64,000 nucleotides of DNA from Marispirochaeta sp. (GCA_963676835.2 CAXXFF010000002.1:512001-576000); one strand, 5' to 3'. Positions 16,362 through 59,222 are shown, counted from the first letter of the stretch. Notes: generated by a model from the sequence alone, not told the origin. Translations and numbers: made by a program.

Positions 16362-16907
16362 CTACCAGATCAAACCAGGTATTATCCCGAAGGGAAGATA
16401 CAATCTGAACCCGTAAATAAATCCGAAGTAGACCACCAGAGAAAATACGACTGACAGCAACAATACAAAGCCCCGGTTTATACCGCCATGCTGCATAACC
16501 CGTATCTGAAAATTAAGATAGAAAATAGTTGACAGAATAAATCCGAAATACTCCGTTACCGCAAAATAGATAAGAATAAGCAGGGGGGTTAATATAATCG
16601 AATTGTCATATTCAGTTTCCCCGCATGCCCCCGCACTCCCTGATCGGGAGGAAACACCCTTCCTGCATTCCCAATGTCTTATCAATGCCCTGAGAAGCAG
16701 AAAGATACCAATACCAATAAGAAGCAGACTTATCAGTTTCGGGAAAAAATCCGATCCAATTTTGGAGACAACAGTCTTCCTGATGGGAAAGGAAGAGATA
16801 AAAGTAAATAATGAGAACACAATCAATACCGAACCGGCAACGATGTCACGGACCTCATCCGATATTGAAGGGATCTTCAGCTTTAAAGCTTTGTTGAACA
16901 TGTCCAT
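16362..16907 (-). CDS. tctB: Tripartite tricarboxylate transporter small subunit
   Basis: Four to five TM segments, FFPK motif, located between tctC and tctA. Confidence 0.8.
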   Translation of the reverse strand: MDMFNKALKLKIPSISDEVRDIVAGSVLIVFSLFTFISSFPIRKTVVSKIGSDFFPKLISLLLIGIGIFLLLRALIRHWECRKGVSSRSGSAGACGETEYDNSIILTPLLILIYFAVTEYFGFILSTIFYLNFQIRVMQHGGINRGFVLLLSVVFSLVVYFGFIYGFRLYLPFGIIPGLIW

Positions 16908-26739: not shown

Positions 26740-26914
26740 ATCTCTTCTCCTCCAAGAATAGTATAAATTCATACTGATATTATTTTATCGACATGTCAAG
26801 ATTTTTCACAACAATTTTATGATAATAATACTCATGTACACAATATTTATTTCGATTGTCTTTTTTTTGAAATAATTTAATAATAACAGCTGGTTTATTC
26901 AGGAGTTTTTTACC

Positions 26915-43757: not shown

Positions 43758-43817
43758 ATAGTAGTTTTGCTATTGTGACGAGAGTGCTCGTGTTAATCGA
43801 GGATTTCTTATTTCAGG

Positions 43818-44489
43818 TTAAAGCAATTCCGGCGCTCCGGAAAAACTGTCCGTTTTCGGCCGGAACAGGTGTCCGTTTTTGCCCGGAATCACTGTCCGCT
43901 TTCCTCCGGAATGGGTGTCCGTTTTCGGCCGGTGTACACATCCGGGGTCAACCTGTTCGGATTCATATGATTTTTTGATTTTTATATATATTTTTGTCAA
44001 TTTTTCAATCTCACGCATTTTCTGTATTGAATCAACTGTCCAGGGACTATCCCTATGCTCTGACATCACAGTCGAGAACATATAGTATGCTTCAGCCATT
44101 TTATTAATTAAAGAATCAATTACTGCCGGGGTATCAACTGCTGTTTTAACGGCATCAGCATTAAATAAACCTTCAATTGAAAAATATTTCCATTGCGAAG
44201 GATGAATTGTCTGGATTATTTTAATGCCTTTTTTATATATAATATATGCATCATCTCTTTCCGGAACGCTACTGACAGTCTGTTGCGTATCAATCTTTTT
44301 AAGCAGGTTCGAATAAGCCTGATTAAGACGGATCATTGAGAGATGGCTGTTACAGGTGGTCTGATTGGTATCAGGATGAAACTTCTTTGATTTCTCCCGG
44401 AAGGCTTTTTTCAGCTCGGAATATGAAAACGTCTCATCAAGGCCGAGAATATCATTATCAGTCATCTTTTTCCCTGTCGCATGTTTCAT
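43818..44489 (-). CDS. J-domain (DnaJ-like) protein with C-terminus replaced by IS21 read-through
   Basis: ILGL..LKKAFR..FHPD. Sequence after VDPG comes from the IS end. Confidence 0.75.
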   Translation of the reverse strand: MKHATGKKMTDNDILGLDETFSYSELKKAFREKSKKFHPDTNQTTCNSHLSMIRLNQAYSNLLKKIDTQQTVSSVPERDDAYIIYKKGIKIIQTIHPSQWKYFSIEGLFNADAVKTAVDTPAVIDSLINKMAEAYYMFSTVMSEHRDSPWTVDSIQKMREIEKLTKIYIKIKKSYESEQVDPGCVHRPKTDTHSGGKRTVIPGKNGHLFRPKTDSFSGAPELL

Positions 44490-45067: not shown

Positions 45068-45334
45068 TCATCCACCTCGGCAGCAATTCTACGCAGTATA
45101 CTGATAATAACGTGCAAACATCTAATCACTCATTCCCTGAAGTTTCTGTCACAACATCGGAGCGACTTGGTTGTCGGTTGTTCTAACTTAACATAACCAA
45201 TTTTAAATTAAACTCAGCGGGAAGCAGTTCACCATAAACACGATTGTTTTTGAACAGAATCATGTCATTATCAAAAACCAATACTTCTTCCATAAGATCT
45301 CTGCCGTCTGAACGAAGAAAAACATCATCGCAAC

Positions 45335-45823
45335 CTAAAGATGCTTCTGCATATAGACAATATCAAATTCTCTTCCAAGCTTGGTACCTATTCTCCTGAA
45401 TCTCCCGCATTCGCGAAAGCCGTTTTTCATATGGAACCGCTGACTAATCAGATTCTCTCCCGAAATAGAAACCAATACCTGCGTTTTTCCTTTTTTCCTG
45501 GCAGCTTCTAACAGCTGTTCGAGGATAAACGCCCCAACCCCCTGGCCTGTTGATTCTTCCGCCAGGAAGTATGTCAACTCTACGGTCTTCTCAAAGGTCG
45601 GATTGTCCGAATAGGGTTTAAGCTGGCAGAATCCGATCAGAGAATTGGCCTCATTTAGAATGGCAAATCCGCAAAGCCGCCTTGCATTATCAATAAACTT
45701 GTCAAAGTAATCATAGTCAACCTCCTCCGGCCGATAAGCATAGGTTGTATTACGAATGTAGTAGTTATAAATATCAATTACCGGCTTTCTGTGCCGTTCC
45801 TCCAGGGGTTCGAGTGTAACCAT
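45335..45823 (-). CDS. GNAT acetyltransferase (phosphinothricin/YncA-like)
   Basis: IYNYYI, GQGVG, N..S..FH...GF, GTKLG..FD. Confidence 0.85.
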   Translation of the reverse strand: MVTLEPLEERHRKPVIDIYNYYIRNTTYAYRPEEVDYDYFDKFIDNARRLCGFAILNEANSLIGFCQLKPYSDNPTFEKTVELTYFLAEESTGQGVGAFILEQLLEAARKKGKTQVLVSISGENLISQRFHMKNGFRECGRFRRIGTKLGREFDIVYMQKHL

Positions 45824-45897
45824 GCGCAACTCCCTATACATTTTTAGTCGAAAACTGCTCCAGTAGAACTCTAACAATCCTGGCGCGAAGGAGCATA

Positions 45898-46437
45898 TTA
45901 CTTATTCTTACTCCCCAATCTATACAGAAACATTTGTGTATTTCCCGGCCTTGCTATTTCTGCTTCCAGTTTCATGCCGGCTTTAACAGCGATTTTTTGT
46001 GATATTTTATTATCAGGCTTTATTAAAGCTACTACACTATTAATTTTCTTTTCGTTGAATGCATAATTCAATAGCATTTCAGAGACTTCTGATGCATACC
46101 CGTTACCCCAATAAATCTCATCGATAACATAGATAACTTCAACTTCATCCTGGCCTTCTATACTCTTTTTCAACAAACCGCAGTGGCCGATGAGATTATG
46201 GGAAGTCCTCTCTTCCAGAATCCAAAGGTCATACTCTTCTTTAAATGGATTGTCTATATTTTCCTGTACAATAGGTTGGATTTCATTATTGTCTCTTGGA
46301 CCACCCATATATTTGGTTACCGCTGGATTGGTCCAAAGATTCACTACGAAATCTTTATCAGAAGGTACAATATTCCGTAATAACAATCGATTAGACTTTA
46401 TGCTGACAACATATTTTGCAGGTTCATTTTTTTTCAT
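45898..46437 (-). CDS. GNAT acetyltransferase (RimJ/RimL-like)
   Basis: SNRLLLR, IGHCGL, YWGNGYASE, N..S. Confidence 0.88.
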   Translation of the reverse strand: MKKNEPAKYVVSIKSNRLLLRNIVPSDKDFVVNLWTNPAVTKYMGGPRDNNEIQPIVQENIDNPFKEEYDLWILEERTSHNLIGHCGLLKKSIEGQDEVEVIYVIDEIYWGNGYASEVSEMLLNYAFNEKKINSVVALIKPDNKISQKIAVKAGMKLEAEIARPGNTQMFLYRLGSKNK

Positions 46438-46558
46438 ATCATTCTCACGCTATCTTCCGTTCTTCAGTACAGTTTAAGACTGCCTGCAGTTAAACTGTAA
46501 CAGTGTCCATCGATATAGAAGAGGCAGCAATTGTTGTTTCCTGAAACACGGATATTAC

Positions 46559-46795
46559 TTACTCTTCCGGCAAGGCCTCAAATTCTTTCTTCCTGGTTTC
46601 AAACCATTCCTGCATTTTCTGAGGCTTTTCCATTAACGCTTTCATGTCATTCATCGCCTTAAGGTGAGCCTCATCACCTTTTTGAAACATTTCCATTCCA
46701 TGATTTTTACTTAATTCGGCTATCTCTTCGAAAGTGTTTGCCTGAAAAATCTTGTTACAAGCTCCGCCAAGTTGCCTGCAGGTCATTGATTTCAT
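46559..46795 (-). CDS. DUF1059-like small protein
   Basis: MTCRQLGGAC, HG, H. Confidence 0.7.
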   Translation of the reverse strand: MKSMTCRQLGGACNKIFQANTFEEIAELSKNHGMEMFQKGDEAHLKAMNDMKALMEKPQKMQEWFETRKKEFEALPEE

Positions 46796-46921
46796 AAAAA
46801 CTCCTTCATGGAGGACATACTCTTTAAATGATATCAAACATTAAAGAAGTTGCAACCTAACATATAGCAAATAGATAAAGTTGGTCGGTGTCTGATCTTC
46901 GGGAATCGATATATCCAACGA

Positions 46922-47416
46922 CTATAGCTTCTTCTCCATACAATAAAACGGTTGTTCCCTAAACGGAAATGTCACTTCTCCGATATTCGCATACCCTTTA
47001 CTCAAATACAATTTCTGCGCAACCTTATTCGCACTGTATACATCCAATCTTACACTACTGTACTTATTCTTTCTGGCATAAGCTTCAATGAACTCCATCA
47101 GTCTACCTGCGATACCCCGGCCCTGAAAATCAGGATGAACTGCCAGCCTGTGTATAATCAGGTTCTTCCCATCCGCATCGCCCCACTTGACTTGCCCATA
47201 TTCTATTGGCTGTTCTTCGTTGATCGCAAAATAGGCCTCACATAAGTCCTCTTCTTTAATTACATATCCATATCCATTTTTTATATCTTCTTCAACAATC
47301 GCATGAGTGGGATAGTGTTCATTCCATTGATAAATCCCCTGTGATTCCATGGAAGAAATGCATTCAGAAAACATGCTCATAATTATAAGCAGATCTTGTA
47401 CTTGTGCTATGGTCAT
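46922..47416 (-). CDS. GNAT acetyltransferase
   Basis: QWNEHYP, IHRLAVHP.FQGRG, N..A..LY. Confidence 0.88.
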   Translation of the reverse strand: MTIAQVQDLLIIMSMFSECISSMESQGIYQWNEHYPTHAIVEEDIKNGYGYVIKEEDLCEAYFAINEEQPIEYGQVKWGDADGKNLIIHRLAVHPDFQGRGIAGRLMEFIEAYARKNKYSSVRLDVYSANKVAQKLYLSKGYANIGEVTFPFREQPFYCMEKKL

Positions 47417-47544
47417 TCCTATTAATCACCTCACTTGTTTCTTTTTTATACTTTTTATTGAAACACAGGGAAAACTGCACCTGTCATCCCGTGAAGTTGT
47501 TAAAGAAAATATGGGTAGAGCTGTATATCCCCTTTTTTGTATTG

Positions 47545-47997
47545 TTAATTTATGCCTTCAGCAGAATTATAATAATTGCTCACACTTTCTTTTACAAATA
47601 GATACCAATAGATGACTAAACTAAACAGAAGTGAAGGGAGTATATTTATAAGAGTGAGCAACTCATTCATTCTCAGAACCGGTAAAATAATTGATGGAAT
47701 CATATAACTACACATCATCAACAACCTTCCCCATTTTATTCTATTCAAAATTGTATACCCGCAAATTGGACAGATTATACCTGCAGCAACAAAAATCCAG
47801 GGGGCTTTTGTTTTCATAAAATCACCATAAGTCATTGCAACACCATTTACAGTGTAATTCATCCCGGGAAAAGGGATGACAGCTATTATAAACAGACTGA
47901 AACAGAGAAAACATAATGCCACTACACGCAATACAAAAGGCATAGATGCAATCTTTGATCTAAACGCCTGTATATATTCAATAATTTTGAAATACAT
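47545..47997 (-). CDS. Hypothetical membrane protein (distal cassette)
   Basis: Four TM segments, starts just after site 1. Confidence 0.6.
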   Translation of the reverse strand: MYFKIIEYIQAFRSKIASMPFVLRVVALCFLCFSLFIIAVIPFPGMNYTVNGVAMTYGDFMKTKAPWIFVAAGIICPICGYTILNRIKWGRLLMMCSYMIPSIILPVLRMNELLTLINILPSLLFSLVIYWYLFVKESVSNYYNSAEGIN

Positions 47998-48030
47998 TTT
48001 TCTCCTCGAACCAATTCTTTAGTTAATTTC

Positions 48031-48112
48031 ATACAATGTCCCACGAATAGGTGAAGTTGCTATGGGAAATTTGGGGGAAGTCACAAGCGAGACCGTGCAT
48101 TCGCTGTTGTAT
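48031..48112 (-). repeat. attC-like site 1 (degenerate)
   Basis: ATACAAT-gtccc-acgaata...cattcgc-t-GTTGTAT. Confidence 0.7.
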
Positions 48113-48130
48113 GATGTGCTTGTTAGTGTG

Positions 48131-48574
48131 CTATGCCTTTTCCAACATCCTCTTTAAATCATCCATGTCAGCAAGAAAAGCCTTCTTCATCCCACCCACC
48201 ATAAATGAAAAGAGTAAATTGAGAAGTTTCGCAGTAAAAGTAGTTGCTCTTCCGGAAAACTCAATTGAAACTCCGGTTTTACCGCCTTCATCAATAAAAC
48301 GCCATTCTGTAGCGTAGTGCATTCCGTTTGACTGCGCCTCTTCTTTGAAATAGTCGGGAGGGTTGAATTGAGTTATTTCCATTGTTTCGCTGGATTCTTT
48401 TCCAAACATGACTCGGGTTTCTTTAAACTTACTCCCTATGCCGACTTCTCCAGGTGTCAAGATTTCAATACTTTTAATGGCCTTTACGTTGTTTGCTAAA
48501 TTTTTCAGGTCAGAAAACGCATTGAATACTTCAGCCTTTTCTGCATTGATTGTGCCATGGGCTTTAACTTTCAT
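48131..48574 (-). CDS. SRPBCC/polyketide cyclase-like protein (cassette)
   Basis: GIGSKFKETRVMFGK, DMDDLKR. Confidence 0.85.
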   Translation of the reverse strand: MKVKAHGTINAEKAEVFNAFSDLKNLANNVKAIKSIEILTPGEVGIGSKFKETRVMFGKESSETMEITQFNPPDYFKEEAQSNGMHYATEWRFIDEGGKTGVSIEFSGRATTFTAKLLNLLFSFMVGGMKKAFLADMDDLKRMLEKA

Positions 48575-48667
48575 TCTGGTCTCCTTTGCTATTTTCAAAC
48601 TTAACTATAGGTATTTCTATAGAATTCAAAACTGCTTTCAGCTGTTCTGCCGAACACCGGCAGTTTC

Positions 48668-48741
48668 ATACAACATTCCGCGAAGTTGTCGAAAGCAATT
48701 TGGGTGACGCCGCAGGCGGAACCGCTTATTTGCTGTTAGGT
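48668..48741 (-). repeat. attC-like site 2 (internal deletion)
   Basis: ATACAAC-attcc-gcgaa...tatttgc-t-GTTAGGT. Confidence 0.75.
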
Positions 48742-48759
48742 GACGTTCTGTTTTTGCAC

Positions 48760-49059
48760 TTAAGATACTTTCACTTGTTGAATTTTATCGAGTTCTATTT
48801 CAATTTTTGGACGTTCAATACGCAATTCATACTCATCCTGAATTCCAAGCCAAAAATCTGGAGAGTTTCCAAAATACTTAGCTAAGCGAAGAGCAGTGTC
48901 TGCAGTAATCTTACGATTTCCCTTTAGAATTTGAGAAATTCTAGTCGCTGGCATATTTGTATCTTTTGCTAACCGATATGCACTTATGTTCATTGGACCA
49001 AGAAATTCTTCTAGGAGAATTTCTCCTGGAGTTATTACTGGGATTTTTTCCATACTCAC
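48760..49059 (-). CDS. higA: HigA antitoxin
   Basis: PGEILLEEFL, ITADTALRLAKYFG.SPDFWL. Confidence 0.93.
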   Translation of the reverse strand: MSMEKIPVITPGEILLEEFLGPMNISAYRLAKDTNMPATRISQILKGNRKITADTALRLAKYFGNSPDFWLGIQDEYELRIERPKIEIELDKIQQVKVS

Positions 49060-49343
49060 CTCTTATGGTAATCAGTTATCTCGACTTCGGTGGCTGTTCC
49101 ATTATTCCAATAAAAACAAATACGCCACTGAGAATTAATCCTTATGCTGTACTGCCCTTTTCTATCCCCTGAAAGCTGCTCAAGTCTGTTACCCGGCGGT
49201 ACCCTAAGATCATTGATGTCTTTTGATCGATGTATAAGTATTAACTTTCTTAAGCCTATTCTTTGCATTTCTTTCGGGAAATGTTTTGAATAGGTTCCAT
49301 TCCATATTTTCTTTGTGTCTTTATCTTTAAAAGATTCTATCAC
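49056..49343 (-). CDS. higB: HigB (RelE-like) toxin
   Basis: DLRVPPGNRLEQL.GDRKGQYSIRIN.QWRICF, DYH. Confidence 0.93.
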   Translation of the reverse strand: MIESFKDKDTKKIWNGTYSKHFPKEMQRIGLRKLILIHRSKDINDLRVPPGNRLEQLSGDRKGQYSIRINSQWRICFYWNNGTATEVEITDYHKR

Positions 49344-49349
49344 TAATCA

Positions 49350-49378
49350 ATAGTAACGCTTCTCGTTACTAACGTCAA
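49350..49378 (-). promoter_or_regulatory. higBA promoter/operator
   Basis: TTGACG-N17-TACTAT enclosing the palindrome TAGTAACG-N5-CGTTACTA. Confidence 0.75.
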
Positions 49379-49404
49379 GCGTTAATATATTTAAACAGAA
49401 TGTC

Positions 49405-49486
49405 ATTTAACGTTCCGCGAATATATGAAGTTGGCCGAAGGCCAATCTTTGTGAAGCGCAGCGAAACCGCCTATTCGCTGTTATAT
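49405..49486 (-). repeat. attC-like site 3
   Basis: ATTTAAC-gttcc-gcgaata...tattcgc-t-GTTATAT. Confidence 0.85.
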
Positions 49487-49532
49487 GTCGTTTGACTGTA
49501 ACCGTCAATTAAACCTCACCCAGAGAAAAAAA

Positions 49533-51053
49533 TCAGAGGGAAATATTCCATGGCAGCAATTTTTCCCAGTTATCAGATTCATTCATGAGTGGAGCTTCCT
49601 CAAAAACGCGTCTCAGGTAGTCGTTCGGGTTCACATTATTTTGTTTGGCTGTCTCAATCAGTGAATACATGGCACAGGAACTTTCTGCCCCCTTTGGACT
49701 ACCGGAAAATAACCAGTTCTTTCGGCCCAGAACAAACGGCCGAATAGCCTGTTCCGCGCTATTGTTGTCAGGTGTCAGATAAGGAGAATCGAGGTAGTGT
49801 ACCAGTTTCTCCCATTCGTTCAAGGTGTACTGAATTGCTTTCCCAAGCAATAACGAAGGAGGAACCTGCTGACTGCGTTTTTCAAGCCAGGTTCTAAACT
49901 TCTGCAAAACCGGTTCCGCCTGAGATTTGCGCTGGTCAACAAACTGGTCTTCGGGCAATTCCATACTGCGAAGACGCTCTTCAATTCCATACAGTTTCCT
50001 GATGGCATTCAATGCTTCCTGTGCACTTGCTGCTTTCTTCGAGGCCTTTGCAGCTTCATGAAACTTTCGCCGAACATGGGCCATGCAGCCGACATGGACT
50101 ATCTGTTCATTCCCCGCCAGGGCTGTACGATACGCATCATAGCCGTCGGTCTGTAAAAAGCCGCTGAATCCATCGAGAAGTTCTTTAATATGCCGGGACC
50201 CGCGGGTTTCCCGGTATGAATAAAGCAATCCCGGGTTTTCCGGAGGGCCGCCGCGGGCAAGCCACATATAGGATTTCGCCGTGTCAGGGCGTTCCGGTTC
50301 TCCGTGTACCTGGACCGGGGTTTCATCCATGTTGATGACCGGCCCTGACCGGATATGCGTTTTCAGTGTTTCTATTAACGGTTCAATTTTATCAAACGCC
50401 GCCTGCTGCCAGTTGCTCATGTTCTGACGGCTTATGTGGATGCCGATTCTTTCAAACCGTTTCTCCTGCCGGTAATAGGGCAGATGATCGACAAACTTGT
50501 TCACTATGATGAAGGAGATCAATCCTGGCGTTACAATGCTTTTAGGGATAATACTTGCAGGGGGATCAGCAACCCTTACCGCCGGCTTCTCTTCATCCCC
50601 GGAGCCTTCACAGTTTTTACAGGCATACTTGGGGCGGATAATCCGTTCCACCCACATCTTCGGGGGGATTACCTGTAAGCGCTCGCTGGTCTCTTCGCCG
50701 ATACGAACCAGCGCATGGCCGCAGGCACACTGTTTTTCTTCTTCGGGAATATCAATGATGATCTCATCCCGGGGAAGGCTTTCATCAATTGGTTTTCTGC
50801 CGGATTTCCTGCGGGGATGGGACTGAACTGGTACGGAAGTCTCTGATGCATCGTTCTCCGAAGTACCATTCTCTTCAAGTCCGAACAACAGCGGTTGATA
50901 CTCATCCAGTTGTTCTTTTTCACTTTTACGGCCAAATTTCTGAAGAAGAAGCAATTTGTACTGCTCTTCCAAGGCACCATAACGCTGCTCCCAGGAACTA
51001 TTAAGTTCGTGGATATAGTCCTGTACTTCCCTGGGAAGTTCTGTAACATCCAT
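49533..51053 (-). CDS. tnpC: IS66 DDE transposase (outer)
   Basis: Zn-finger, KFVDHLPYYRQ, DET, TDGY, CMAHVRRKF, NN.AE.AIRP, GRKNWLF. Confidence 0.95.
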   Translation of the reverse strand: MDVTELPREVQDYIHELNSSWEQRYGALEEQYKLLLLQKFGRKSEKEQLDEYQPLLFGLEENGTSENDASETSVPVQSHPRRKSGRKPIDESLPRDEIIIDIPEEEKQCACGHALVRIGEETSERLQVIPPKMWVERIIRPKYACKNCEGSGDEEKPAVRVADPPASIIPKSIVTPGLISFIIVNKFVDHLPYYRQEKRFERIGIHISRQNMSNWQQAAFDKIEPLIETLKTHIRSGPVINMDETPVQVHGEPERPDTAKSYMWLARGGPPENPGLLYSYRETRGSRHIKELLDGFSGFLQTDGYDAYRTALAGNEQIVHVGCMAHVRRKFHEAAKASKKAASAQEALNAIRKLYGIEERLRSMELPEDQFVDQRKSQAEPVLQKFRTWLEKRSQQVPPSLLLGKAIQYTLNEWEKLVHYLDSPYLTPDNNSAEQAIRPFVLGRKNWLFSGSPKGAESSCAMYSLIETAKQNNVNPNDYLRRVFEEAPLMNESDNWEKLLPWNISL

Positions 51054-51114
51054 GCTAATAAGAATTCTAGCATGCCGTACATTCTATGTAAATTCCTTTA
51101 CACCAATAATATGC

Positions 51115-51462
51115 TTACGAAACCCGCGAATATTCCAAACTAGTATGTTCATTCCAAAAATCGATGCCTTTCAACAGCATCGATAGCTGTTCCGGGGTAA
51201 TCATACGTGCAGTTTCTTCGGTTACGGGCCAGGGAAACTTATGCTTTTCCAGTTTCTTCTGCCAGAGACAGAATCCGTTCTTGTCCCAGTAGAGGGCTTT
51301 CATAATTCGTCGTTCGCGGTTGCAGAACAGAAACAGATTGCCGCTTAACGGATTTTCATTCATATAGTCCTGCACCATGACAACTAAGCCGTTGATTGCT
51401 TTACGCATATCAGTGATGCCTGGCCGGATAAATATCTGTACCGCTGATAAATCTGGGGTCAT
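51115..51462 (-). CDS. tnpB: IS66 accessory protein (outer)
   Basis: TDMRKAINGL, LYWD.NGF.LW.KKLE. Confidence 0.95.
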   Translation of the reverse strand: MTPDLSAVQIFIRPGITDMRKAINGLVVMVQDYMNENPLSGNLFLFCNRERRIMKALYWDKNGFCLWQKKLEKHKFPWPVTEETARMITPEQLSMLLKGIDFWNEHTSLEYSRVS

Positions 51463-51693
51463 TCATAAACCCTCAAGGCTGTTAATACTGCTTTAAGCTG
51501 GTCATGGTTTGCTGTTACCGGCAGAGTAATAACAATATCGTGCAACTTTATGGTAATGGTTTCTTTTTTGGATAAATGATGAAAAGAGCTTTTTACTGGT
51601 ATGAACCCGGCTGCTGCTGTTTCAGAAGCTAATCCTGTTTGTACGGCACGTTTCCTTTGTAACCGTCAATTAAACCTCACCCAGAGAAAAAAA

Positions 51694-53223
51694 TCAGAGG
51701 GAAATATTCCATGGCAGCAATTTTTCCCAGTTATCAGATTCATTCATGAGTGGAGCTTCCTCAAAAACGCGTCTCAGGTAGTCGTTCGGGTTCACATTAT
51801 TTTGTTTGGCTGTCTCAATCAGTGAATACATGGCACAGGAACTTTCAGCCCCCTTTGGACTACCGGAAAATAACCAGTTCTTTCGGCCCAGCACAAATGG
51901 CCGGATGGCCTGCTCCGCGCTATTGTTGTCCGGCGTCAGATAAGGCGAATCAAGGTAGTGTACCAGTTTCTCCCATTCGTTCAAGGTGTACTGAATTGCT
52001 TTCCCAAGCAATAACGAAGGAGGAACCTGCTGACTGCGTTTTTCAAGCCAGGTTCTAAACTTCTGCAAAACCGGTTCCGCCTGAGATTTGCGCTGGTCAA
52101 CAAACTGGTCTTCGGGCAATTCCATACTGCGAAGACGCTCTTCAATCCCATACAGTTTCCTGATGGCATTCAATGCTTCCTGTGCACTTGCTGCTTTCTT
52201 CGAGGCCTTTGCAGCTTCATGAAACTTTCGCCGAACATGGGCCATGCAGCCGACATGGACTATCTGTTCATTCCCCGCCAGGGCTGTACGATACGCATCA
52301 TAGCCGTCAGTCTGTAAAAAGCCGCTGAATCCATCGAGAAGTTCTTTAATATGTCGGGACCCGCGGGTTTCCCGGTATGAGTAAAGCAATCCCGGGTTTT
52401 CCGGAGGGCCGCCGCGGGCAAGCCACATATAGGATTTCGCCGTGTCTGGGCGTTCCGGTTCTCCGTGTACCTGGACCGGGGTTTCATCCATGTTGATGAC
52501 CGGCCCTGACCGGATATGCATTTTCAGAGTCTCAATTAAAGGTTCAATCTTTTCATACGTCATCTGCTGCCAGTTGCTCATGTTCTGACGGCTTATGTGG
52601 ATGCCGATCCGCTCAAATCGTTTCTCCTGCCGGTAATAGGGCAGATGATCTACAAATTTATTCACTATGATGAAGGAGAGCAATCCAGGCGTTACAATGC
52701 TTTTAGGGATGATACTTGCAGGGGGGGCAGCAACCCTTACTGCCGGCTTCTCTTCATCCCCGGAGCCTTCACAGTTCTTGCAGGCATACTTGGGACGGAT
52801 AATCAGTTCTACCCACATCTTCGGGGGGATTACCTGTAAGCGCTCGCTGGTCTCTTCGCCGATACGAACCAGCGCATGGCCGCAGGCACACTGTTTTTCA
52901 TCTTCGGGAATATCAATGATGATCTCTTCCCGGGGAAGGCTTTCATCAATTGGTTTTCTGCCGGATTTCTTGCGGGGATGGGACTGAACTGGTACGGAAG
53001 TCTCTGATGCATCGTTCTCCGAAGTACCATTCTCTTCAAGCCCGAACAACAGCGGTTGATACTCATCCTGTTGTTCTTTTTCACTTTTACGGCCAAATTT
53101 CTGAAGAAGAAGCAACTTGTACTGCTCCTCCAAGGCACCGTAGCGATGTTCCCAGGAACTGTTTGCTGTCTCAAGAGAGTGAATGTAGTCTTGTACTTCC
53201 TTCGGAAGGGCTGCAACATCCAT
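51694..53223 (-). CDS. tnpC: IS66 DDE transposase (inner)
   Basis: Near-identical to outer tnpC. Confidence 0.95.
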   Translation of the reverse strand: MDVAALPKEVQDYIHSLETANSSWEHRYGALEEQYKLLLLQKFGRKSEKEQQDEYQPLLFGLEENGTSENDASETSVPVQSHPRKKSGRKPIDESLPREEIIIDIPEDEKQCACGHALVRIGEETSERLQVIPPKMWVELIIRPKYACKNCEGSGDEEKPAVRVAAPPASIIPKSIVTPGLLSFIIVNKFVDHLPYYRQEKRFERIGIHISRQNMSNWQQMTYEKIEPLIETLKMHIRSGPVINMDETPVQVHGEPERPDTAKSYMWLARGGPPENPGLLYSYRETRGSRHIKELLDGFSGFLQTDGYDAYRTALAGNEQIVHVGCMAHVRRKFHEAAKASKKAASAQEALNAIRKLYGIEERLRSMELPEDQFVDQRKSQAEPVLQKFRTWLEKRSQQVPPSLLLGKAIQYTLNEWEKLVHYLDSPYLTPDNNSAEQAIRPFVLGRKNWLFSGSPKGAESSCAMYSLIETAKQNNVNPNDYLRRVFEEAPLMNESDNWEKLLPWNISL

Positions 53224-53285
53224 ACTGAAAAAAATTCTAGCATACAGCTCTTTCTCTGTAAATTCCTTTACACCATTAAAATGCT

Positions 53286-53633
53286 TTAAGAAACACGGGA
53301 ATATTCCAAAGTAGTATGTTCATTCCAGAAATCGATGCCTTTCAACAGCATCGATAGCTGTTCCGGGGTAATGGCAAGAGCATCTTCTTCAGTTACGGGC
53401 CAGGGGAATTTATGCTTTTCCAGTTTCTTCTGCCACAGGCAGAAACCATTCCGGTCCCAATACAATGCCTTCATGATTCGTCGTTCGCGGTTGCAGAACA
53501 GAAACAGATTGCCGCTTAACGGATTTTCATTCATATAGTCCTGCACCATGACAACTAAGCCGTTGATTGCTTTACGCATATCAGTGATGCCTGGCCGGAT
53601 AAATATCTGTACGGCTGATAAATCTGGGGTCAT
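53286..53633 (-). CDS. tnpB: IS66 accessory protein (inner)
   Basis: As outer tnpB. Confidence 0.95.
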   Translation of the reverse strand: MTPDLSAVQIFIRPGITDMRKAINGLVVMVQDYMNENPLSGNLFLFCNRERRIMKALYWDRNGFCLWQKKLEKHKFPWPVTEEDALAITPEQLSMLLKGIDFWNEHTTLEYSRVS

Positions 53634-53959
53634 TCATAAACCCTCAAGGCTGTTAATACTGCTTTTAGCTGGTCATGATTTGCTGTTACCGGCAGAGTAA
53701 TAACAATATCGTGCAACTTTATGGTTATGGTTTCTTTTTCGGATAAATGATGAAAAGAGCTTTTTACTGGTATGAACCGGGCTGCTGCTGTTTCAGAGCC
53801 TATTCCGGTTTGTACGGCACGTTTCCTTTCGGCTTTTTTCCAGCTGTAAAACGTTGTGGGTGGTATTTCGTGCTGCCGGCAATACTCCTGCCCGCTTAAC
53901 CCGCTTTTTTCCCAATTTCTAAGATGTTCACACTGCTGTTCCCGGTTATATTTGACCAT
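53630..53959 (-). CDS. tnpA: IS66 HTH protein (inner)
   Basis: WEKSGLS..EYC..H.I...TFYSW, FIPV. Confidence 0.9.
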   Translation of the reverse strand: MVKYNREQQCEHLRNWEKSGLSGQEYCRQHEIPPTTFYSWKKAERKRAVQTGIGSETAAARFIPVKSSFHHLSEKETITIKLHDIVITLPVTANHDQLKAVLTALRVYE

Positions 53960-54232
53960 GCGATTCCTCCATTAAGGGAGGATTGTAGGGCATTCATTGA
54001 TGTCGGCATAAGGTGGGGTTTAATTGACGGTTACTTTCCTTTCGGCTTTTTTCCAGCTGTAAAATGTTGTGGGTGTTATTTCGTGCTGCCGGCAATACTC
54101 CTGCCCGCTTAACCCACTTTTTTCCCAATTTCTAAGATGTTCACACTGCTGTTCCCGATTATATTTGACCATGCGATTCCTCCATTAAGGGAGGATTGTA
54201 GGGCATTCATTGATGTCGGCATAAGGTGGGGT

Positions 54233-54652
54233 TTAATTGACGGTTACGTTTGACTCTTGCACCCAGTTTTCAATGATCAGTTTGGGTACTCTCTCAAATT
54301 CCTTTACATTATTTGTAACAAGACATAAGTTTCTTGTTACACACTGTGCGGCTATTTGGAGATCATATGGCCCAATTGGGGTACCTAATTTATTTAGATA
54401 AGCACGTATATACCCGAAGTTCTCAGCGTCTAATTCACTAAAAGGGATAATTTCAAAAGGAGACAGAAATCCATATAGTAATTCCCTATTTCGATCAGGA
54501 TATAAACTTTTTGCTATTCCATACTCCAGTTCAGCTATAGTAATTGAAGAAAGAGCAATATTAAACAACTCTTCATCCTCTATCCTGATTTGAAGTTCGG
54601 GATATTTCTTTTTCATTAAATAAATACAAATATTTGTATCAAGTAAATACAC
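54233..54652 (-). CDS. vapC: VapC PIN-domain toxin (last codons supplied by IS66 end)
   Basis: YLLDTNICI, GPYDLQIAA, LVTNN..EF.RV. Confidence 0.92.
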   Translation of the reverse strand: MYLLDTNICIYLMKKKYPELQIRIEDEELFNIALSSITIAELEYGIAKSLYPDRNRELLYGFLSPFEIIPFSELDAENFGYIRAYLNKLGTPIGPYDLQIAAQCVTRNLCLVTNNVKEFERVPKLIIENWVQESNVTVN

Positions 54653-54882
54653 TATATACTTTCCCGTTCTTGCATTTCGGGCTGCTCTCTCCCTTCCGAG
54701 AATAAATCATCGGAAAACATATTTATACTATTTCTAAAAGAAGACCATAAATCATCTTTTGAAGTTAGAATAATAGAGCTTCCTACTTTATGTATAAGGA
54801 GCTCCGAATCAGAAATCGCATATTCTTTTGGGATTCTAATAGCTTGGCTATTGCCACTTCGGAATACTTTTACCGTTTGCAT
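54652..54882 (-). CDS. vapB: VapB (AbrB-type) antitoxin
   Basis: KVFRSGNSQAIRIPKEY. Confidence 0.92.
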   Translation of the reverse strand: MQTVKVFRSGNSQAIRIPKEYAISDSELLIHKVGSSIILTSKDDLWSSFRNSINMFSDDLFSEGREQPEMQERESI

Positions 54883-54902
54883 ATTTTATGCCTCCTGCAT
54901 CA

Positions 54903-54931
54903 AGTATATACCTATGTGTATACATTTTCAA
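54903..54931 (-). promoter_or_regulatory. vapBC promoter/operator
   Basis: TTGAAA-N17-TATACT overlapping the imperfect palindrome GTATATAC-N4-GTGTATAC. Confidence 0.7.
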
Positions 54932-54943
54932 GAGTCAAATGAC

Positions 54944-55038
54944 ATATAACGTCCCGGGGTTATGTGACGTACGGCGTAAGCCGTATGTGGCGCAGCCCGA
55001 GGAGCGTATAGCGACGAAGCACATAGCCCCTGTTATAC
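54944..55038 (-). repeat. attC-like site 4
   Basis: ATATAAC-gtccc-ggggttatgtg...cacatagcccc-t-GTTATAC. Confidence 0.88.
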
Positions 55039-55052
55039 GACGTTTCATATAT

Positions 55053-55460
55053 CTACCTTTGAGCAATTATTTCTTTTACAAACTCTTTTGAAAAATCGTA
55101 TTGCTCAGAGTTTTCCACCTCAAATTTTATATTATATCCTTCCGAATATTTTCTGGCGGTTGATACCATTTCTTTATATTTTACCATATCCTCTTTAGAC
55201 TCAAAATATTCTTTTTCATTTTTTCTAATAGCCATACTCAGAATAAAGGAATCGTTCAACGGAATAAAATAGTAAAGTGCTTTTTTCTTATCTTCTACTT
55301 TTTCCATCCAGCCACTCGATCTTGAATGATTCCAGGTGTGTTGAAAATCTTTTGTCAATTTATTTAAATCTTGATAATATTCGGAAACAACACCGAGTGC
55401 TTCATTTATTTTTTCGTTTGTAGGTTCATTCGATTTTTCTTTAAACGGTCTTTCACTCAC
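55053..55460 (-). CDS. DUF3788-like protein (cassette)
   Basis: PT...I..ALG, SGW..K..KKKAL.Y.IP, YSEG. Confidence 0.65.
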   Translation of the reverse strand: MSERPFKEKSNEPTNEKINEALGVVSEYYQDLNKLTKDFQHTWNHSRSSGWMEKVEDKKKALYYFIPLNDSFILSMAIRKNEKEYFESKEDMVKYKEMVSTARKYSEGYNIKFEVENSEQYDFSKEFVKEIIAQR

Positions 55461-55491
55461 TTTTTACTCCATTTTAGATATGTGATATGTC

Positions 55492-55637
55492 GTATAACGT
55501 GATGCGAATATGCGAAGATATTCGCTGAAATTATACTATCATGTTTGTCCATTAGAACAAACATGATTTTTGTAAAATGCAAGAGCGGATATTTTGAGCG
55601 AAGGCTGAAAGCCGTAGCCGCATATTCGCAGTTAGTA
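55492..55637 (-). repeat. attC-like site 5
   Basis: GTATAAC-gtgat-gcgaatatgcg...cgcatattcgc-a-GTTAGTA. Confidence 0.88.
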
Positions 55638-55659
55638 GAAGTGTTTAATTTTTTTATAA

Positions 55660-56106
55660 CTATAATTCGTTTGTTCTACCAAAAGCAAAAGTTGCTTTTG
55701 ATGTGTATTTTGCAGAAAACCCTTTCATTTCTGAATCCATGGCTTGATCTAACATTATTATTGCATTTGCACCTTTTGTTTTAGCATAATCCTTCAATAA
55801 TTTATAATACTCAGAAGCATCTGGTTGCTTATAATTCATATTGAACCCTGATAATTTGTTCGTTGTATTTATTGTGATCATTCCAATTTGATTGTATTTA
55901 AAAGAAGGTGGTATTAACATATTAGAATGATATGCAACGGCTGAATCAACCGCTAATGCAGGATAAACTTTACCTGTTGGTATATACAATTCTTCTAAAT
56001 CAGTCATTGTATAATCTGATACATTACTTTTTTCTTTGTTTGTAGATGTTGTTACACATCCCAATAATGTTAATAAAAGTACTAAAATTAAAATTAACTT
56101 TCTCAT
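55660..56106 (-). CDS. Hypothetical lipoprotein (cassette)
   Basis: Lipobox LLGC, AKTKGANAII (YbjQ-like). Confidence 0.7.
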   Translation of the reverse strand: MRKLILILVLLLTLLGCVTTSTNKEKSNVSDYTMTDLEELYIPTGKVYPALAVDSAVAYHSNMLIPPSFKYNQIGMITINTTNKLSGFNMNYKQPDASEYYKLLKDYAKTKGANAIIMLDQAMDSEMKGFSAKYTSKATFAFGRTNEL

Positions 56107-56185
56107 GGTCACTCCTTAATTATTAATAAATTATTTATAGCAAAATTTCTTCTTAAAATCAATATTCTATAATTTTAAACACTTC

Positions 56186-56445
56186 TACTAACGTTCCGCG
56201 AATATATGAATTTTCTATCAAAAACACGGGTTTATTTTCAATATAACGCCGTTTTCTGCTGCAGACCGTGAAATTGGCGCAGAATGTGCGTAAGCAGATT
56301 CTGTGACAATAGGGCTGACAGTAGCAAAACATGGTTATATTGTCGTTTATTATAGCATGTAAATTGTTTATTTCGGAACCAATTCTTTTTGATAGAAATT
56401 TGGCGAAGCCCGGAGCGAAGCGGAGCATATCATTCGCTGTAAAAC
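56186..56445 (-). repeat. attC-like site 6 (260 bp, long internal insert)
   Basis: TACTAAC-gttcc-gcgaatatatg...catatcattcgc-t-GTAAAAC. Confidence 0.8.
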
Positions 56446-56473
56446 GAAGTTTTCTTGGGGGCGCGTACAATAA

Positions 56474-56890
56474 TTAATGCTGATGTACGAAGCTGTTAAT
56501 AAAATTTCCATCCATATCAAAAACAATGTCGAATGTATCAGGATCAATTCCATACCCAGTCCACCAACCTATTGAATATAATAATATATCTCTCTCTTCT
56601 TCATAATCATTGATAAAGGCATCCTCTGGTTCTCCTAAGAGTTCAATTGTTTCTAGTTTATTTAATTTTTTCTCATTCAAAATACTTTGTAGTGATTCTA
56701 CCATTTTCCCGCGATCATTATCGGTGCCCCAGTTTCCAGCATTTTCCTTCCAAACCACTTCATTAAAAGGGAGATCATCGAAAATATTTCCACCTTTTGC
56801 AATGTAGGAGACACAACTAGAAAAAATTAGAGTTGCGAAGAATATCAGAAAAACTGAAATGTTGTTCCTATGCGTAAAGATCGTTTTCAT
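56474..56890 (-). CDS. Hypothetical lipoprotein (cassette)
   Basis: Lipobox FSSC, RGKMV..L, IELLGEP. Confidence 0.7.
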   Translation of the reverse strand: MKTIFTHRNNISVFLIFFATLIFSSCVSYIAKGGNIFDDLPFNEVVWKENAGNWGTDNDRGKMVESLQSILNEKKLNKLETIELLGEPEDAFINDYEEERDILLYSIGWWTGYGIDPDTFDIVFDMDGNFINSFVHQH

Positions 56891-56918
56891 TTTGAAAAAT
56901 ATCCCCCAAGAAAATTTT

Positions 56919-57009
56919 GTTTAACGTTCTGACAATATATGAAGTCTACCACGGAGTGGGAGATTTGGCGAAGCCCGAAGCGAAGCGGAGCATATATTGT
57001 CTGTTAGAA
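56919..57009 (-). repeat. attC-like site 7
   Basis: GTTTAAC-gttct-gacaatatatg...catatattgtc-t-GTTAGAA. Confidence 0.88.
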
Positions 57010-57063
57010 GTAGTTACATCCTGCCATTGCATAATAAATAAACCGAAAGGAAAACACTAAGAT

Positions 57064-57513
57064 TTAATACAGTGGTTCAAACTGCTTATTCTCGGGATTC
57101 CAGAAATATACACGAGCATTATTAATGAAGTTTTTCCCTTCATTTGTGTAGACTGATAACTTTAAAGTTATATCGTCTCCTATTTCAATTTTATACCCAT
57201 AGAAGACTGAATCTCGACGCATTGGCACTTTGTGAGGATCTTTGCTCCAATAGTCTGTAATCATCTCTTTCTCAATTCTAAAAACTTCATGAATAGATCT
57301 GGAGCTCGTAGAAAGGATTAGCATTTGGTCAAAAAAAGTTTGACTATCGTCAATGTAGTGGAATCCGAAATATAAACCCTGAGGTTCGAAGGAGGTGATA
57401 ATGAACTCTTTTTCATTAAAAAAAGATTTCATTTCATCGTCAATTGACTCAGAGAATGAAAAATATGAAAAACCTAAAAGAAAAACTAGCGTGATGAAAT
57501 ATTTTTTTGACAT
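57064..57513 (-). CDS. Exported hypothetical protein (cassette)
   Basis: Signal peptide, bounded by sites 7 and 8. Confidence 0.65.
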   Translation of the reverse strand: MSKKYFITLVFLLGFSYFSFSESIDDEMKSFFNEKEFIITSFEPQGLYFGFHYIDDSQTFFDQMLILSTSSRSIHEVFRIEKEMITDYWSKDPHKVPMRRDSVFYGYKIEIGDDITLKLSVYTNEGKNFINNARVYFWNPENKQFEPLY

Positions 57514-57550
57514 GTACATCTCCATAACCAATTGAAAAGGATGTAATTAC

Positions 57551-57640
57551 TTCTAACGTTCCGGGTTTATATGACGTTTTTGCAACGCAAAAATGTGGCG
57601 TAGCCCAAGCCGAAGGCGCAGCATATAAACCCTGTTATAC
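57551..57640 (-). repeat. attC-like site 8
   Basis: TTCTAAC-gttcc-gggtttatatg...catataaaccc-t-GTTATAC. Confidence 0.88.
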
Positions 57641-57660
57641 GATGGTTTTTGGTTCAGTTG

Positions 57661-57942
57661 TCAGGCCTTCTGAATTTTCCAAACTGAATCCTTTAATTCC
57701 CTATATGCTTCCATACCAGGACTGAGATCAGAAATATCATTTATTGATGAATCAATATTCAAAGCTTCTTGCATACTGATCACACGGCCATCTTCTGTAT
57801 TATTAGTTGTTCCACAAAAAAATCCCCAAGAATGATCATCCTCATAGTGCACAACTTTTAAAATGGGATATCCTTCTTCAAGCACTTGCTTTGTGGTAAT
57901 TGCAGCAGTATTTGGCGATTGATCAAAATTCCATTTATCCAT
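57661..57942 (-). CDS. DUF2185/immunity-like small protein (cassette)
   Basis: VVHYEDDHSWGFFCG, ID.SI..I.DL.PG..A.R. Confidence 0.6.
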   Translation of the reverse strand: MDKWNFDQSPNTAAITTKQVLEEGYPILKVVHYEDDHSWGFFCGTTNNTEDGRVISMQEALNIDSSINDISDLSPGMEAYRELKDSVWKIQKA

Positions 57943-57983
57943 CAGCATACCATTTCTATAAAATAAGTTTTCCAAAAACTATC

Positions 57984-58134
57984 GTATAACGTCTCGCCAA
58001 TATGCGAAGTTGCCTGGCACCCCATCGGGGTTGATAAATGCTGGGAAAATTGTAGCACGGTTTTTCCGGCATTTGTCAAAGGCAATTTGGGTGCAGTGAG
58101 CAAAGCGAACGGAACCGCATATTGGCTGTTATGC
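57984..58134 (-). repeat. attC-like site 9
   Basis: GTATAAC-gtctc-gccaatatgcg...cgcatattggc-t-GTTATGC. Confidence 0.88.
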
Positions 58135-58336
58135 GAAGGAATCAGACTTTTATTCCTGCTCACACCAGCGTCGTTCTTGCCGGGTGCGACTGCACCTTAA
58201 TGAAGCCTTCCACTTGGACGGTCTTTATTACGCATTGCGTATTAATTCCCGGCCCGCGCAACTCTTTAAAAAGCAGGAATTACGACACCATTTTTAATGG
58301 TGCGACTATATATCCCCACTGATTCTTTCGCATAAC
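58128..58336 (-). other. ORF-less first cassette with multiple stems (candidate ncRNA or regulatory cassette)
   Basis: Bounded by an 18-bp IR, no credible ORF, several inverted repeats. Confidence 0.6.
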
Positions 58337-58352
58337 TACACTTATCCGCATT
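58325..58352 (-). promoter_or_regulatory. attI-like / dif-like primary recombination site
   Basis: TTTCGCATAA-CTACAC-TTATCCGCAT. The last cassette end is not followed by an attC core; the site abuts the integrase. Confidence 0.7.
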
Positions 58353-58373
58353 GTACATTAAGTTCCCCATTAT

Positions 58374-59222
58374 ATGAAGCAACATAATACTTCTGCGGTT
58401 ATTATAAGTATGAGCACTACATATATTGAGAAAATAGCCAGAGAAATGCAGGATCATATGATCTTCCGTAACTATTCACGCCACAGCATTACAGCATACA
58501 TTTCTCACATTCGATCATTTCACAACTTTTGCAGCAATACCAGTGAATCCAACCGCGAAAAACGTATCATTGCGTATATAAATCAATGTCCCCACTCAAG
58601 CAGGACAGTGGCGCGGTCGGCCTTGAAATACCTCTATGTAAATATCCTGAAAATCCCGGTTTCCATTTTAGATGTTAAGGTGCGTCATAGCCAAAAAATC
58701 CCCCCGGTTTTATCACGAGCCGAGGCTATCAGTCTTATCAACTCCATTACAAATTGTAAGCACCGTCTTATGATCGCCCTTTTGTATGGATCAGGATTAA
58801 GGGTAAGCGAAGTTGTCAATTTGAAAGTTGGAGACGTACTTCTTTCGCGTCAAAAGCTTCATATCAGGCAGGCGAAGAACAAAAAAGACAGGATTGTAGT
58901 CCTGTCCGCAGAATTGATGCCCCAGATAATTAACGATATAGCCGGCAGATCACCGAAAGAGTGGCTGTTCTTAAATCAATCTGGAAAGAAATATGCTATC
59001 CGGACAGTTCAGGCTGTTTTCAAAAAAGCCCTTCACAAGTGCAATCTCAACAGAAATGCCAGCTGTCATTCCCTCCGCCATTCGTTTGCAACATCACTGC
59101 TGGAAAATGGTGTGGACATAAGGCTTATACAGGCTCAACTTGGGCACTCAAATCTCAAAACAACCATGCGCTATACAAGGATTTCCGGAGCTATGATTGA
59201 AAATCTTCAATCTCCTTTATAG
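58374..59222 (+). CDS. Tyrosine recombinase (integron-integrase-like, lacking IntI insertion)
   Basis: N-terminal RNYS.HSI.AY, then YGSGLRVSE, K.KKDR, HSLRHSFAT, LGH, TTMRY. True start may be 58410. Confidence 0.9.
   Translation: MKQHNTSAVIISMSTTYIEKIAREMQDHMIFRNYSRHSITAYISHIRSFHNFCSNTSESNREKRIIAYINQCPHSSRTVARSALKYLYVNILKIPVSILDVKVRHSQKIPPVLSRAEAISLINSITNCKHRLMIALLYGSGLRVSEVVNLKVGDVLLSRQKLHIRQAKNKKDRIVVLSAELMPQIINDIAGRSPKEWLFLNQSGKKYAIRTVQAVFKKALHKCNLNRNASCHSLRHSFATSLLENGVDIRLIQAQLGHSNLKTTMRYTRISGAMIENLQSPL

Follow-up and report, generated by a model that had tools for sequence, protein, structure and literature searches.

We analyzed a 64,000-nucleotide stretch of Marispirochaeta sp. DNA (GCA_963676835.2, CAXXFF010000002.1:512001-576000), referred to here as the window. 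A first-pass annotation had noticed repeated hairpin sites in it and proposed that they are a distinct class of structure-defined recombination sites acting as single-stranded DNA (ssDNA). The window contains nine structured sites between 48028 and 58130, every one on the + strand, next to the gene of a tyrosine recombinase that we named W-Int. Our analysis indicated that these sites are probably, at roughly 0.75, the attC equivalents of an integron-like cassette platform run by W-Int, a recombinase without the IntI-specific insertion. Coordinates are collected in Table 1.

The array is laid out like an integron. The recombinase gene (+) is followed by an attI-like junction and then by nine units of an open reading frame (ORF) plus a site on the - strand, giving nine cassettes for nine sites. 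The small ORFs between the sites are all on the - strand, and the recombinase gene is divergent from them. The cassette cargo consists of two toxin-antitoxin pairs (HigB/HTH and MazE-like/PIN), a DUF3788 protein, an SRPBCC-like protein, and four family-less proteins. Beyond its GTT, each site has a flank that is complementary, over as many as 10 nt, to the sequence preceding AAC in the next site; GTTATACGAT after S8 and ATCGTATAAC before S9 are one such complementary pair. The two flanks of one same site matched far more weakly than those of neighboring sites did. As read in the sequence, this complementarity is the classical signature of cassettes cut at a conserved triplet, and the crossovers therefore fall at AA|C on the + strand.

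The attI-like junction sits 75 nt before the W-Int gene. Its left arm (TTCGCATAA) is complementary to GTTATGCGAA, which directly follows S9. At the corresponding locus of a related Marispirochaeta metagenome-assembled genome (MAG), the left attI arm is different and fits that genome's own first cassette, and the right side is conserved. The attI-adjacent arm thus varies with the first cassette, and no site body lies between the junction and the recombinase gene. Both observations indicated that, as in integrons, a cassette comprises an ORF with its downstream site, and the latter also indicated that the + strand corresponds to the integron "bottom" strand.

On the + strand, a site runs from RYYYAAC through 5 nt and an 11-nt stem strand into a variable arm and one or two mini-hairpins, and returns through the complementary strand of the stem and 1 nt to GTTRRRY. 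The single base before GTT is T in the window sites, except for A in S5. The first-pass annotation had given this order as AAC-N5-stem...stem-N1-GTT, with AAT in site 1 and GTA in site 6, and all of it was read in the sequence. A complementary partner was present for each of the five 11-nt stems that it quoted, as were the two arm variants (GAAGTT...AATTT or GACGT...ATGT) and the mini-hairpins GCGAAGC, GCGCAGC, GCGTAGC, GCCGAAGGC, and GCCGCAGGC. Folding with DNA parameters reproduced an R-box helix, a one-sided bulge, an 11-bp helix, and branching at the top; two of the nine sites, S1 and S2, are decayed.

The 5/1 asymmetric loop below an 11-bp stem, as first described, kept its letters and changed its interpretation. 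In the DNA-parameter fold, the single T is paired with the G that follows AAC, and this turns the 5/1 loop into a 4-nt bulge. Loop and stem are better read as an R arm, a paired 6-nt center with a 3-4-nt bulge, and a 7-bp L arm. The window's own sites have a 5/1 spacer. In 76 aligned family sites, the spacers were 4/1 (n = 44), 5/1 (n = 25), 3/1 (n = 5), 4/2 (n = 1), and 5/2 (n = 1). The R-box triplets of these sites were highly conserved (A8, 76/76; A9, 74/76; C10, 73/76; G, 75/76; TT, 76/76). Column frequencies indicated that the first four stem pairs vary freely and covary; the conserved stem positions are 6-8 (T, A, T) and 11 (G). The family sites are covarying hairpins of 64-179 nt, reaching up to 268 nt.

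The two arms mirror each other. The 5' strand of the L arm (stem top plus first arm bases) reads ATATGCGAWG, and the 3' strand of the R arm reads TTAKRYGATG; the L-arm consensus is the R-arm consensus, inverted within the folded duplex. The 3' strand of a site consists of the L arm (7 nt), six bases, and the R arm (7 nt), its 3' half reading CRYATAT, 6 nt, TTAKRYG. The 5' strand has the same arm-6-arm order plus 3-4 extra bases, two nucleotides after AA|C. The attI-like junction is likewise arm, six bases, arm. These features suggest that the folded site is a hairpin-encoded 7-6-7 core, in which the 6-nt central region would be paired, with a 3-4-nt bulge by the crossover and no extrahelical bases.

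Two further ideas about the site body were tried and rejected. The bulge (GTTY or GTCC, alignment columns 11-15) and the unpaired linker before the 3' L-arm strand (GAAC or GAGC, columns 218-222) are complementary in 77% of cells. Their changes seem coupled, yet show no compensatory Watson-Crick pattern, and a bulge-linker pairing was dropped. The Marispirochaeta site L009:361-505 was considered as a chimera proving an in-arm crossover; 8 of its 11 stem positions still pair, and its stems are near consensus.

A covariance model, R1, was built from four window sites and four sites of the related Marispirochaeta genome. On the window, R1 recovered the sites at E-values from 1e-23 to 3e-3, all on the + strand and S6 as two halves. 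On the whole 4.43-Mb genome, it matched in the window array only. No Rfam family matched the sites at E <= 0.1. Covariation was counted on the 76 sites aligned to R1. Pairing was kept in 95.8% of cells, and double changes occurred in 16 of 21 pairs. Double-change cells in this model-fitted alignment numbered 314, compared with 92 ± 7 in shuffles and 20-38 with slid partners. The covariation that the first-pass annotation had seen in the stem was therefore strong.

The + strand was the more stable one in DNA-parameter folding for all nine window sites and for 69 of the 76 family sites, with a mean difference of 3.2 kcal/mol (Wilcoxon p = 8.5e-13). In 59 of 68 sites, one pair of the arm is G.T, which would turn into a C.A mismatch on the opposite strand. 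GNA-type mini-hairpins (N, any base) in the family sites numbered 121 on the + strand and 30 on the - strand, against 39.7 ± 6.7 in shuffles. Twenty of the 121 matches (ACGAAGT) are an artefact of the stem/arm junction rather than true hairpins, and about 100 remain, so the branched top is indeed rich in them. Of the proposed structure-defined ssDNA site, the strand-specific features were found on the + strand; from them we infer that the + strand folds and is used as ssDNA.

The structural data also bear on whether the sites work as double-stranded, Xer/dif-like sites, with the GTT-side 7-6-7 repeat used in the manner of pdif and the long palindrome incidental. The order of the 3' half and the arm-6-arm attI-like junction fit this idea, and W-Int resembles XerA (see below). 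However, the four central pairs are unconserved and yet covary across strands 60-170 nt apart, which a duplex site would not need. The cassette ends put the crossover at the AAC side, where the duplex spacing is 9-10 nt rather than 6. The G.T wobbles, the GNA loops, and the folding energy all favor one strand. We consider duplex use rather unlikely.

The tyrosine-recombinase catalytic residues of W-Int, R143, K168, H232, R235, H258, and Y267, are invariant in a 26-member family alignment. Its ORF is open from 58374 (282 aa), and the Marispirochaeta MAG recombinase, 71% identical to W-Int, has a stop within that leader. W-Int scored under every NCBIfam cut-off (score/cut-off in bits: XerA_Arch, 193.1/220; IntI TIGR02249, 177.6/265; XerC, 142.1/335; XerD, 132.5/330). 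The TIGR02249 match was in two pieces, with profile positions 178-239 unmatched. The same genome encodes a true IntI on contig C3 (about 355.6 bits on TIGR02249); W-Int is 31% identical to it, with a 46-column gap at the IntI-specific insertion. The best solved relative of the W-Int family profile was VchIntIA (2a3v; 237.7 bits in two stretches), followed by archaeal XerA. VchIntIA chain residues 183-238 lie opposite just 13 W-Int profile positions, and W-Int has about 43 residues fewer at the insertion. Foldseek with an AlphaFold model of W-Int (mean predicted local distance difference test score, 85.6) gave the same ranking, VchIntIA and then XerA.

In a quick tree, W-Int relatives and IntI stood together against this genome's own Xer proteins (Shimodaira-Hasegawa-like approximate likelihood ratio test support, 100). 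IntI formed one clade (100), and the W group branched around it in no resolved order. The tree had just three outgroup rows, one of them very long, and is thinly rooted, so that the insertion may have been either gained or lost. On these comparisons of sequence and predicted structure, W-Int is related to IntI and XerA and lacks the IntI-specific insertion.

W-Int relatives are numerous. Among 8000 candidates scored, 3735 had E <= 1e-20; most are about 270 aa long, and their hosts are Patescibacteria (candidate phyla radiation, CPR), Spirochaetota, Margulisbacteria, and others. We searched 81 loci around W-Int relatives, mostly from CPR bacteria and spirochaetes, with R1 at E <= 0.1. There were 77 matches, and 77/77 were upstream of the recombinase gene and on its strand, although upstream DNA made up only 33% of the bases searched. 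Where at least 1.5 kb of upstream DNA was available, 30 of 43 loci had a match. The same search of 80 true-IntI loci (788 kb) returned no match. None of the four CPR genomes with arrays, which are incomplete MAGs, had an IntI above the cut-off. At 35 of the 81 W-Int loci, no more than 600 nt of contig remain upstream of the recombinase gene, which suggests that assemblies tend to break at the repeated sites and that arrays are under-represented in MAGs.

W-Int-linked and IntI-linked sites were also compared with a boundary-signature scan, which accepts only sites of attC geometry with a cassette-boundary signature. At W-Int loci it returned 37 sites, with first loops of 3/0 (26 sites), 4/0 (5), 2/0 (2), and others (4). 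Thirty of them had no bulge in the first 14 bp, and the helix was unbroken for 11 bp in 24. At IntI loci it returned 17 sites; four (L105, L110, L123, and L128) look false and were set aside, and 13 are credible. All 13 had one to three bulges on one arm, from 6-7 bp onward. Their first loops, in bottom-strand orientation, were 2/2, 2/1 (three), 3/2 (five), 6/2 (three), and 5/2. The 6/2 and 5/2 sites came from two Coriobacteriia loci, and none of these four has 0-1 bases on one arm. This classical sample is small and crude, and the sites are set apart by geometry, bulges, and recombinase link, not by an attC-model score. Two de novo scans for classical attC geometry were discarded; their 74 upstream and 49 downstream "sites" showed no enrichment and were mostly GC-rich coding sequence. 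The proposal of a distinct class thus stood on the covariation, on occurrence only beside the W-Int clade, and on the lack of extrahelical bases, but the loop asymmetry that had been part of it is not unique to these sites: 4 of the 13 classical sites are lopsided with the same polarity, and asymmetry alone is not diagnostic.

A complete classical integron is located outside the window, on contig C3:3400-29100. Its IntI gene (27840-29099, +) has at least 16 long attC sites (174-189 nt) on its left, of two sequence subtypes and with insertion sequence (IS)-like interruptions. In these 16 sites, the first loop is symmetric (2-3/2-3) and the 3' arm has bulges of one base. Inside the window, S6 contains a nested attC of classical geometry, single-copy in the genome; its 3' arm has one bulged base after 5 bp and another after a further 6 bp. 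Conversely, W-type sequence was found in the C3 array. A 94-aa ORF is present there twice (23417-23701 and 27172-27456), the second time in the attI-adjacent cassette. The left flank of each copy is the 3' half, and the right flank the 5' half, of one same W-type site. These permuted halves (C3:23119-23850 and 26874-27610) lie within cassettes bounded by C3-type attC, and their outer ends run into C3-type attC. Paired with each other, the two halves give an 11-bp R box, then a bulge of 4 nt and a run of 23 uninterrupted pairs (-29.2 kcal/mol). A third, lone W-type 5' half is at C3:3415. The same 94-aa ORF is located in an ordinary W-type array of the Marispirochaeta genome.

Permuted halves are expected if a W-type cassette circle with an arm-nested classical attC, like S6, was opened by IntI at the inner site. 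From this arrangement we infer that the IntI array captured a window-type cassette through a nested classical attC. The site types are segregated by array, yet cassettes could cross between the two systems via nested sites.

The coexistence of both systems raises the question of whether the window array is an ordinary attC cluster served in trans by the IntI of contig C3, W-Int being an unrelated or decayed neighbor. The true IntI, the AAC/GTT triplets shared by the R boxes, the window-type cassette in the IntI array, and the similar lopsidedness of some IntI-linked attC sites fit this explanation. Against it, no complete W-type site was found outside the window array, and none of the 16 C3-type sites is inside the window. 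R1 matched 77 times beside W-Int relatives and never at IntI loci, and no IntI exceeded the cut-off in the array-bearing CPR genomes. W-Int itself is intact and keeps all its catalytic residues. The captured cassette would have come in through its nested classical attC, not through its W-type site. Service in trans is therefore quite unlikely. That the repeats are RNA elements (terminators or stabilizers of cassette transcripts) or repetitive extragenic palindromic (REP)-like sequences unrelated to recombination is very improbable: the sites do lie directly after the stop codons of - strand genes, but the better-folding strand is antisense to the genes and therefore argues against a role in cassette transcripts, the G.T wobbles become C.A mismatches in the sense transcript, Rfam gave no match, and an RNA role would explain neither the neighbor-flank complementarity nor the strict tie to one recombinase family.

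Several points weigh against the reading of the sites as attC equivalents served by W-Int. The evidence is sequence-derived throughout. The sole public run with this DNA (contigs) offered only faint signals, one low-depth joint from 55036 to 58071 (side 23) and, in three contigs, loose ends at 54946 within the S4 R box; neither is strong enough to be taken as excision. The covariation alignment, being fitted to the model, favors structure, and its margin over the controls was wide. Read as duplex DNA, every site has a 7-6-7 inverted repeat in its GTT-side half and could conceivably react in double-stranded form. R1 found no match in 13 of the 43 W-Int loci with at least 1.5 kb upstream. This genome and the Marispirochaeta MAG each encode a true IntI as well as W-Int, so cross-service of sites is possible in the two spirochaetes, and the four CPR genomes without IntI over the cut-off are incomplete.

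If the sites are attC equivalents run by W-Int, the reaction may proceed as follows. The + ("bottom") strand would fold when single-stranded and present a complete core site, made of the R arm (CRYATAA with TTAKRYG), the 6-nt center, and the L arm (WTATRYG, formed by the uppermost 7 bp of the 11-bp stem). One W-Int monomer would bind the R duplex and a second the L duplex, which would be stacked on the variable arm. The central region would be base-paired, with C-G, G.T, and then four freely covarying pairs. Two nucleotides 3' of the scissile position, the cut strand would have its 3-4 additional bases, which are rich in pyrimidines. Cutting, at AA|C, and exchange with attI or another site would involve only the bulged 5' arm. 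In every site, the same first swap bases would be provided by the invariant C-G that follows the cut and lies opposite the invariant T-G of the other arm, and the bulge beside them would give flexibility and mark the strand. The one-strand junction would not be resolvable by a second exchange; replication would resolve it, as proposed for integrons (PMC2095811). The one-sided bulge, the conserved G.T wobble, and the GNA mini-hairpins would let only the + strand fold well, and could replace the role of the extrahelical bases and the I2 helix of classical integrons.

Other features of the window were recorded along the array. Two nested IS66-family elements, flanked by an 8-bp target duplication (GTTTGACT) at 49490-49497 and 54248-54255, break up the array and split the PIN cassette from S3; they are outside the recombination system. 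They inserted at the 3' end of the PIN gene, whose final codons and stop are now IS-derived. Uninterrupted, the PIN ORF would run through S3 to a stop in the S3 R box. The HigB/HTH cassette is common to the window and Marispirochaeta and was compared to see which site travels with the ORF; both flanking site bodies differ, and it was the attI junction that supplied the answer. S1 is the last recognisable site, and an R1 search with filters off found no more sites on its left. Small - strand ORFs, including three GNAT acetyltransferases, continue at 45100-48000 without recognisable sites, and a remnant like a 3' half-site lies near 47480-47545; this run may be an old, decayed part of the array. 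The attI-adjacent cassette 58126-58334 (about 209 nt plus the long site S9) has no ORF of at least 50 aa in the cassette direction (-), and the short ORFs 57942-58163 (-), 58122-58322 (+), and 58266-58457 (-) merely reach into it. Promoter-like sites around attI were not above chance (3 seen, 2.4 expected). Clusters of a motif of about 10 nt (GTCCGTTTT-like) beside a transposase-like ORF at 43800-43930, and on contig C3 at about 3220-3330, 16400-16560, and 18893-18981, look like subterminal repeats of a multi-copy transposon.

Table 1. Sites, recombinase gene, and associated elements of the window (R1, covariance model score; folding energies in kcal/mol for the + and - strands)
Feature	Position	Strand	Content	Evidence
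S1, decayed (AAT for AAC, stem mismatches)	48028..48116	+	ORF 48131-48598 (-), SRPBCC-like	R1 36.9 bits
S2, decayed, most of 5' stem strand gone	48665..48745	+	HigB/HTH cassette 48760-49343 (-)	Pfam; R1 21.9 bits
S3	49402..49490	+	MazE-like/PIN toxin-antitoxin cassette 54233-54882 (-)	Pfam; R1 76.2 bits
Two nested IS66-family elements	49498..54247	-	DDE_Tnp_IS66, TnpB_IS66, HTH_Tnp_1	Pfam; repeated ends read in sequence
S4	54941..55047	+	ORF 55053-55460 (-), DUF3788	Pfam; R1 88.5 bits
S5	55489..55641	+	ORF 55660-56112 (-), 150 aa, no family	R1 42.5 bits
S6 (GTA for GTT)	56183..56450	+	ORF 56474-56890 (-); nested attC in arm loop	R1 in two halves; fold -43.2 vs -34.1
Nested classical-geometry attC inside S6	56239..56349	+	9-bp R box, 3/3 spacer	Fold -27.0 (+) vs -17.1 (-)
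S7	56916..57013	+	ORF 57064-57531 (-), 155 aa, no family	R1 84.2 bits
S8	57548..57644	+	ORF 57661-57975 (-), 104 aa, no family	R1 98.4 bits
S9 (long arm)	57971..58130	+	ORF-less cassette 1 (58126-58334)	R1 49.5 bits; fold -37.1 (+) vs -27.8 (-)
attI-like junction	58326..58347		Arm TTCGCATAA, predicted crossover between 58334 and 58335, central 6 nt CTACAC, arm TTATCCG	Read from sequence
W-Int, tyrosine recombinase, 270 aa	58410..59222	+	Phage_integrase and SAM-like N-domain	Pfam Phage_integrase 3.1e-39

Integron finding relies on the IntI-specific domain as one marker and on the attC model as the other. A platform without that domain and off that model would at best be reported as orphan attC clusters. 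The W-Int family is large and widespread, which means that current counts may miss a sizeable reservoir of mobile cassettes. One cell here combines the classical pair with a second pair, in which the sites lack extrahelical bases and the recombinase lacks the I2 insertion, and this would form a natural experiment on the reading of folded DNA and on strand choice. A small recombinase acting on a compact and strongly structured site might also be of use as an orthogonal tool for structure-specific recombination. Our literature search on integrons, attC, CPR, spirochaetes, and integron-like recombinases found no description of the platform or the site type. The present analysis contributes an explicit site model, IntI-locus controls, the coexistence with a classical integron in a spirochaete, and the nested sites. 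A broader and more tentative idea is that W-Int and its sites represent a second, large, old integron-type branch with an Xer-style 7-6-7 folded site, from which classical integrons might be derived by the I2 insertion and extrahelical-base recognition, both coexisting here and exchanging cassettes via mutually nested attC.

The closest known relatives of Xer/dif type (XerC/D, archaeal XerA, and XerH), which include the pdif modules of Acinetobacter plasmids, share several features with the system described here. W-Int resembles Xer proteins in size and domain layout and likewise has no insertion, XerA is its best NCBIfam match, and the attI-like junction and the folded site both follow the order arm, 6 nt, arm. 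The differences are that W-Int is below all Xer cut-offs, that the host has separate Xer genes, and that covarying hairpins bound array cassettes here, whereas dif sites are 28-bp duplexes.

Two published sets of recombinases come near W-Int. Smyshlyaev et al. 2021 (PMC8138268) listed a "Cand" subgroup of simple, Xer-related tyrosine recombinases from candidate phyla and noted that the insertion is not fully conserved in an "integron-like" group. The sections of that paper used here describe no cassette arrays or sites for either subgroup. Cury et al. 2016 (PMC4889954) mentioned a few tyrosine recombinases without intI_Cterm beside attC sites and judged them not to be IntI. As described there, those cases had fewer than three attC sites each, whereas the arrays here have up to nine sites and recur at W-Int loci.

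Integrons (IntI, attI, and bottom-strand attC, such as VchIntIA with the Vibrio cholerae repeat, 2a3v, and class 1 attC) are the nearest system. In both, the integrase gene is divergent from a one-directional cassette array, a cassette is an ORF plus its downstream site, the R box has AAC/GTT, the bottom-strand crossover lies at AA|C, and the terminal structure is variable. VchIntIA is the closest solved relative of W-Int. The bottom strand folds better in both, by a mean of 2.12 kcal/mol over 263 attC sites (Nivina 2016, PMC5027507) and by 3.2 kcal/mol here. The differences lie in the insertion, reflected in the low TIGR02249 score of W-Int, and in the site. Canonical attC sites have an unpaired central spacer of about 5-6 bases per arm (Nivina 2016, PMC5027507), whereas the first loop of window-type sites in minimum free energy folds is 3/0 or 4/0 in 31 of 37; the canonical R boxes, RYYYAAC/GTTRRRY, are present in window-type sites. 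In attC, two or three extrahelical bases near L'' are read by the integrase (Nivina 2016, PMC5027507; Demarre 2007, PMC2095811), and complementing them lowers recombination from about 1e-1 to 3.8e-5 (PMC2095811). Bulges of this kind were found in all 13 IntI-linked sites, whereas the L stem of most window-type sites has none; the window-type L arm is conserved and mirrors the R arm, and the top is branched with GNA mini-hairpins. As far as the sequences indicate, what distinguishes the window-type site is the combination of a near-absent spacer on one arm, a paired center, no extrahelical bases, a mirrored L arm, a branched top, and its partner recombinase.

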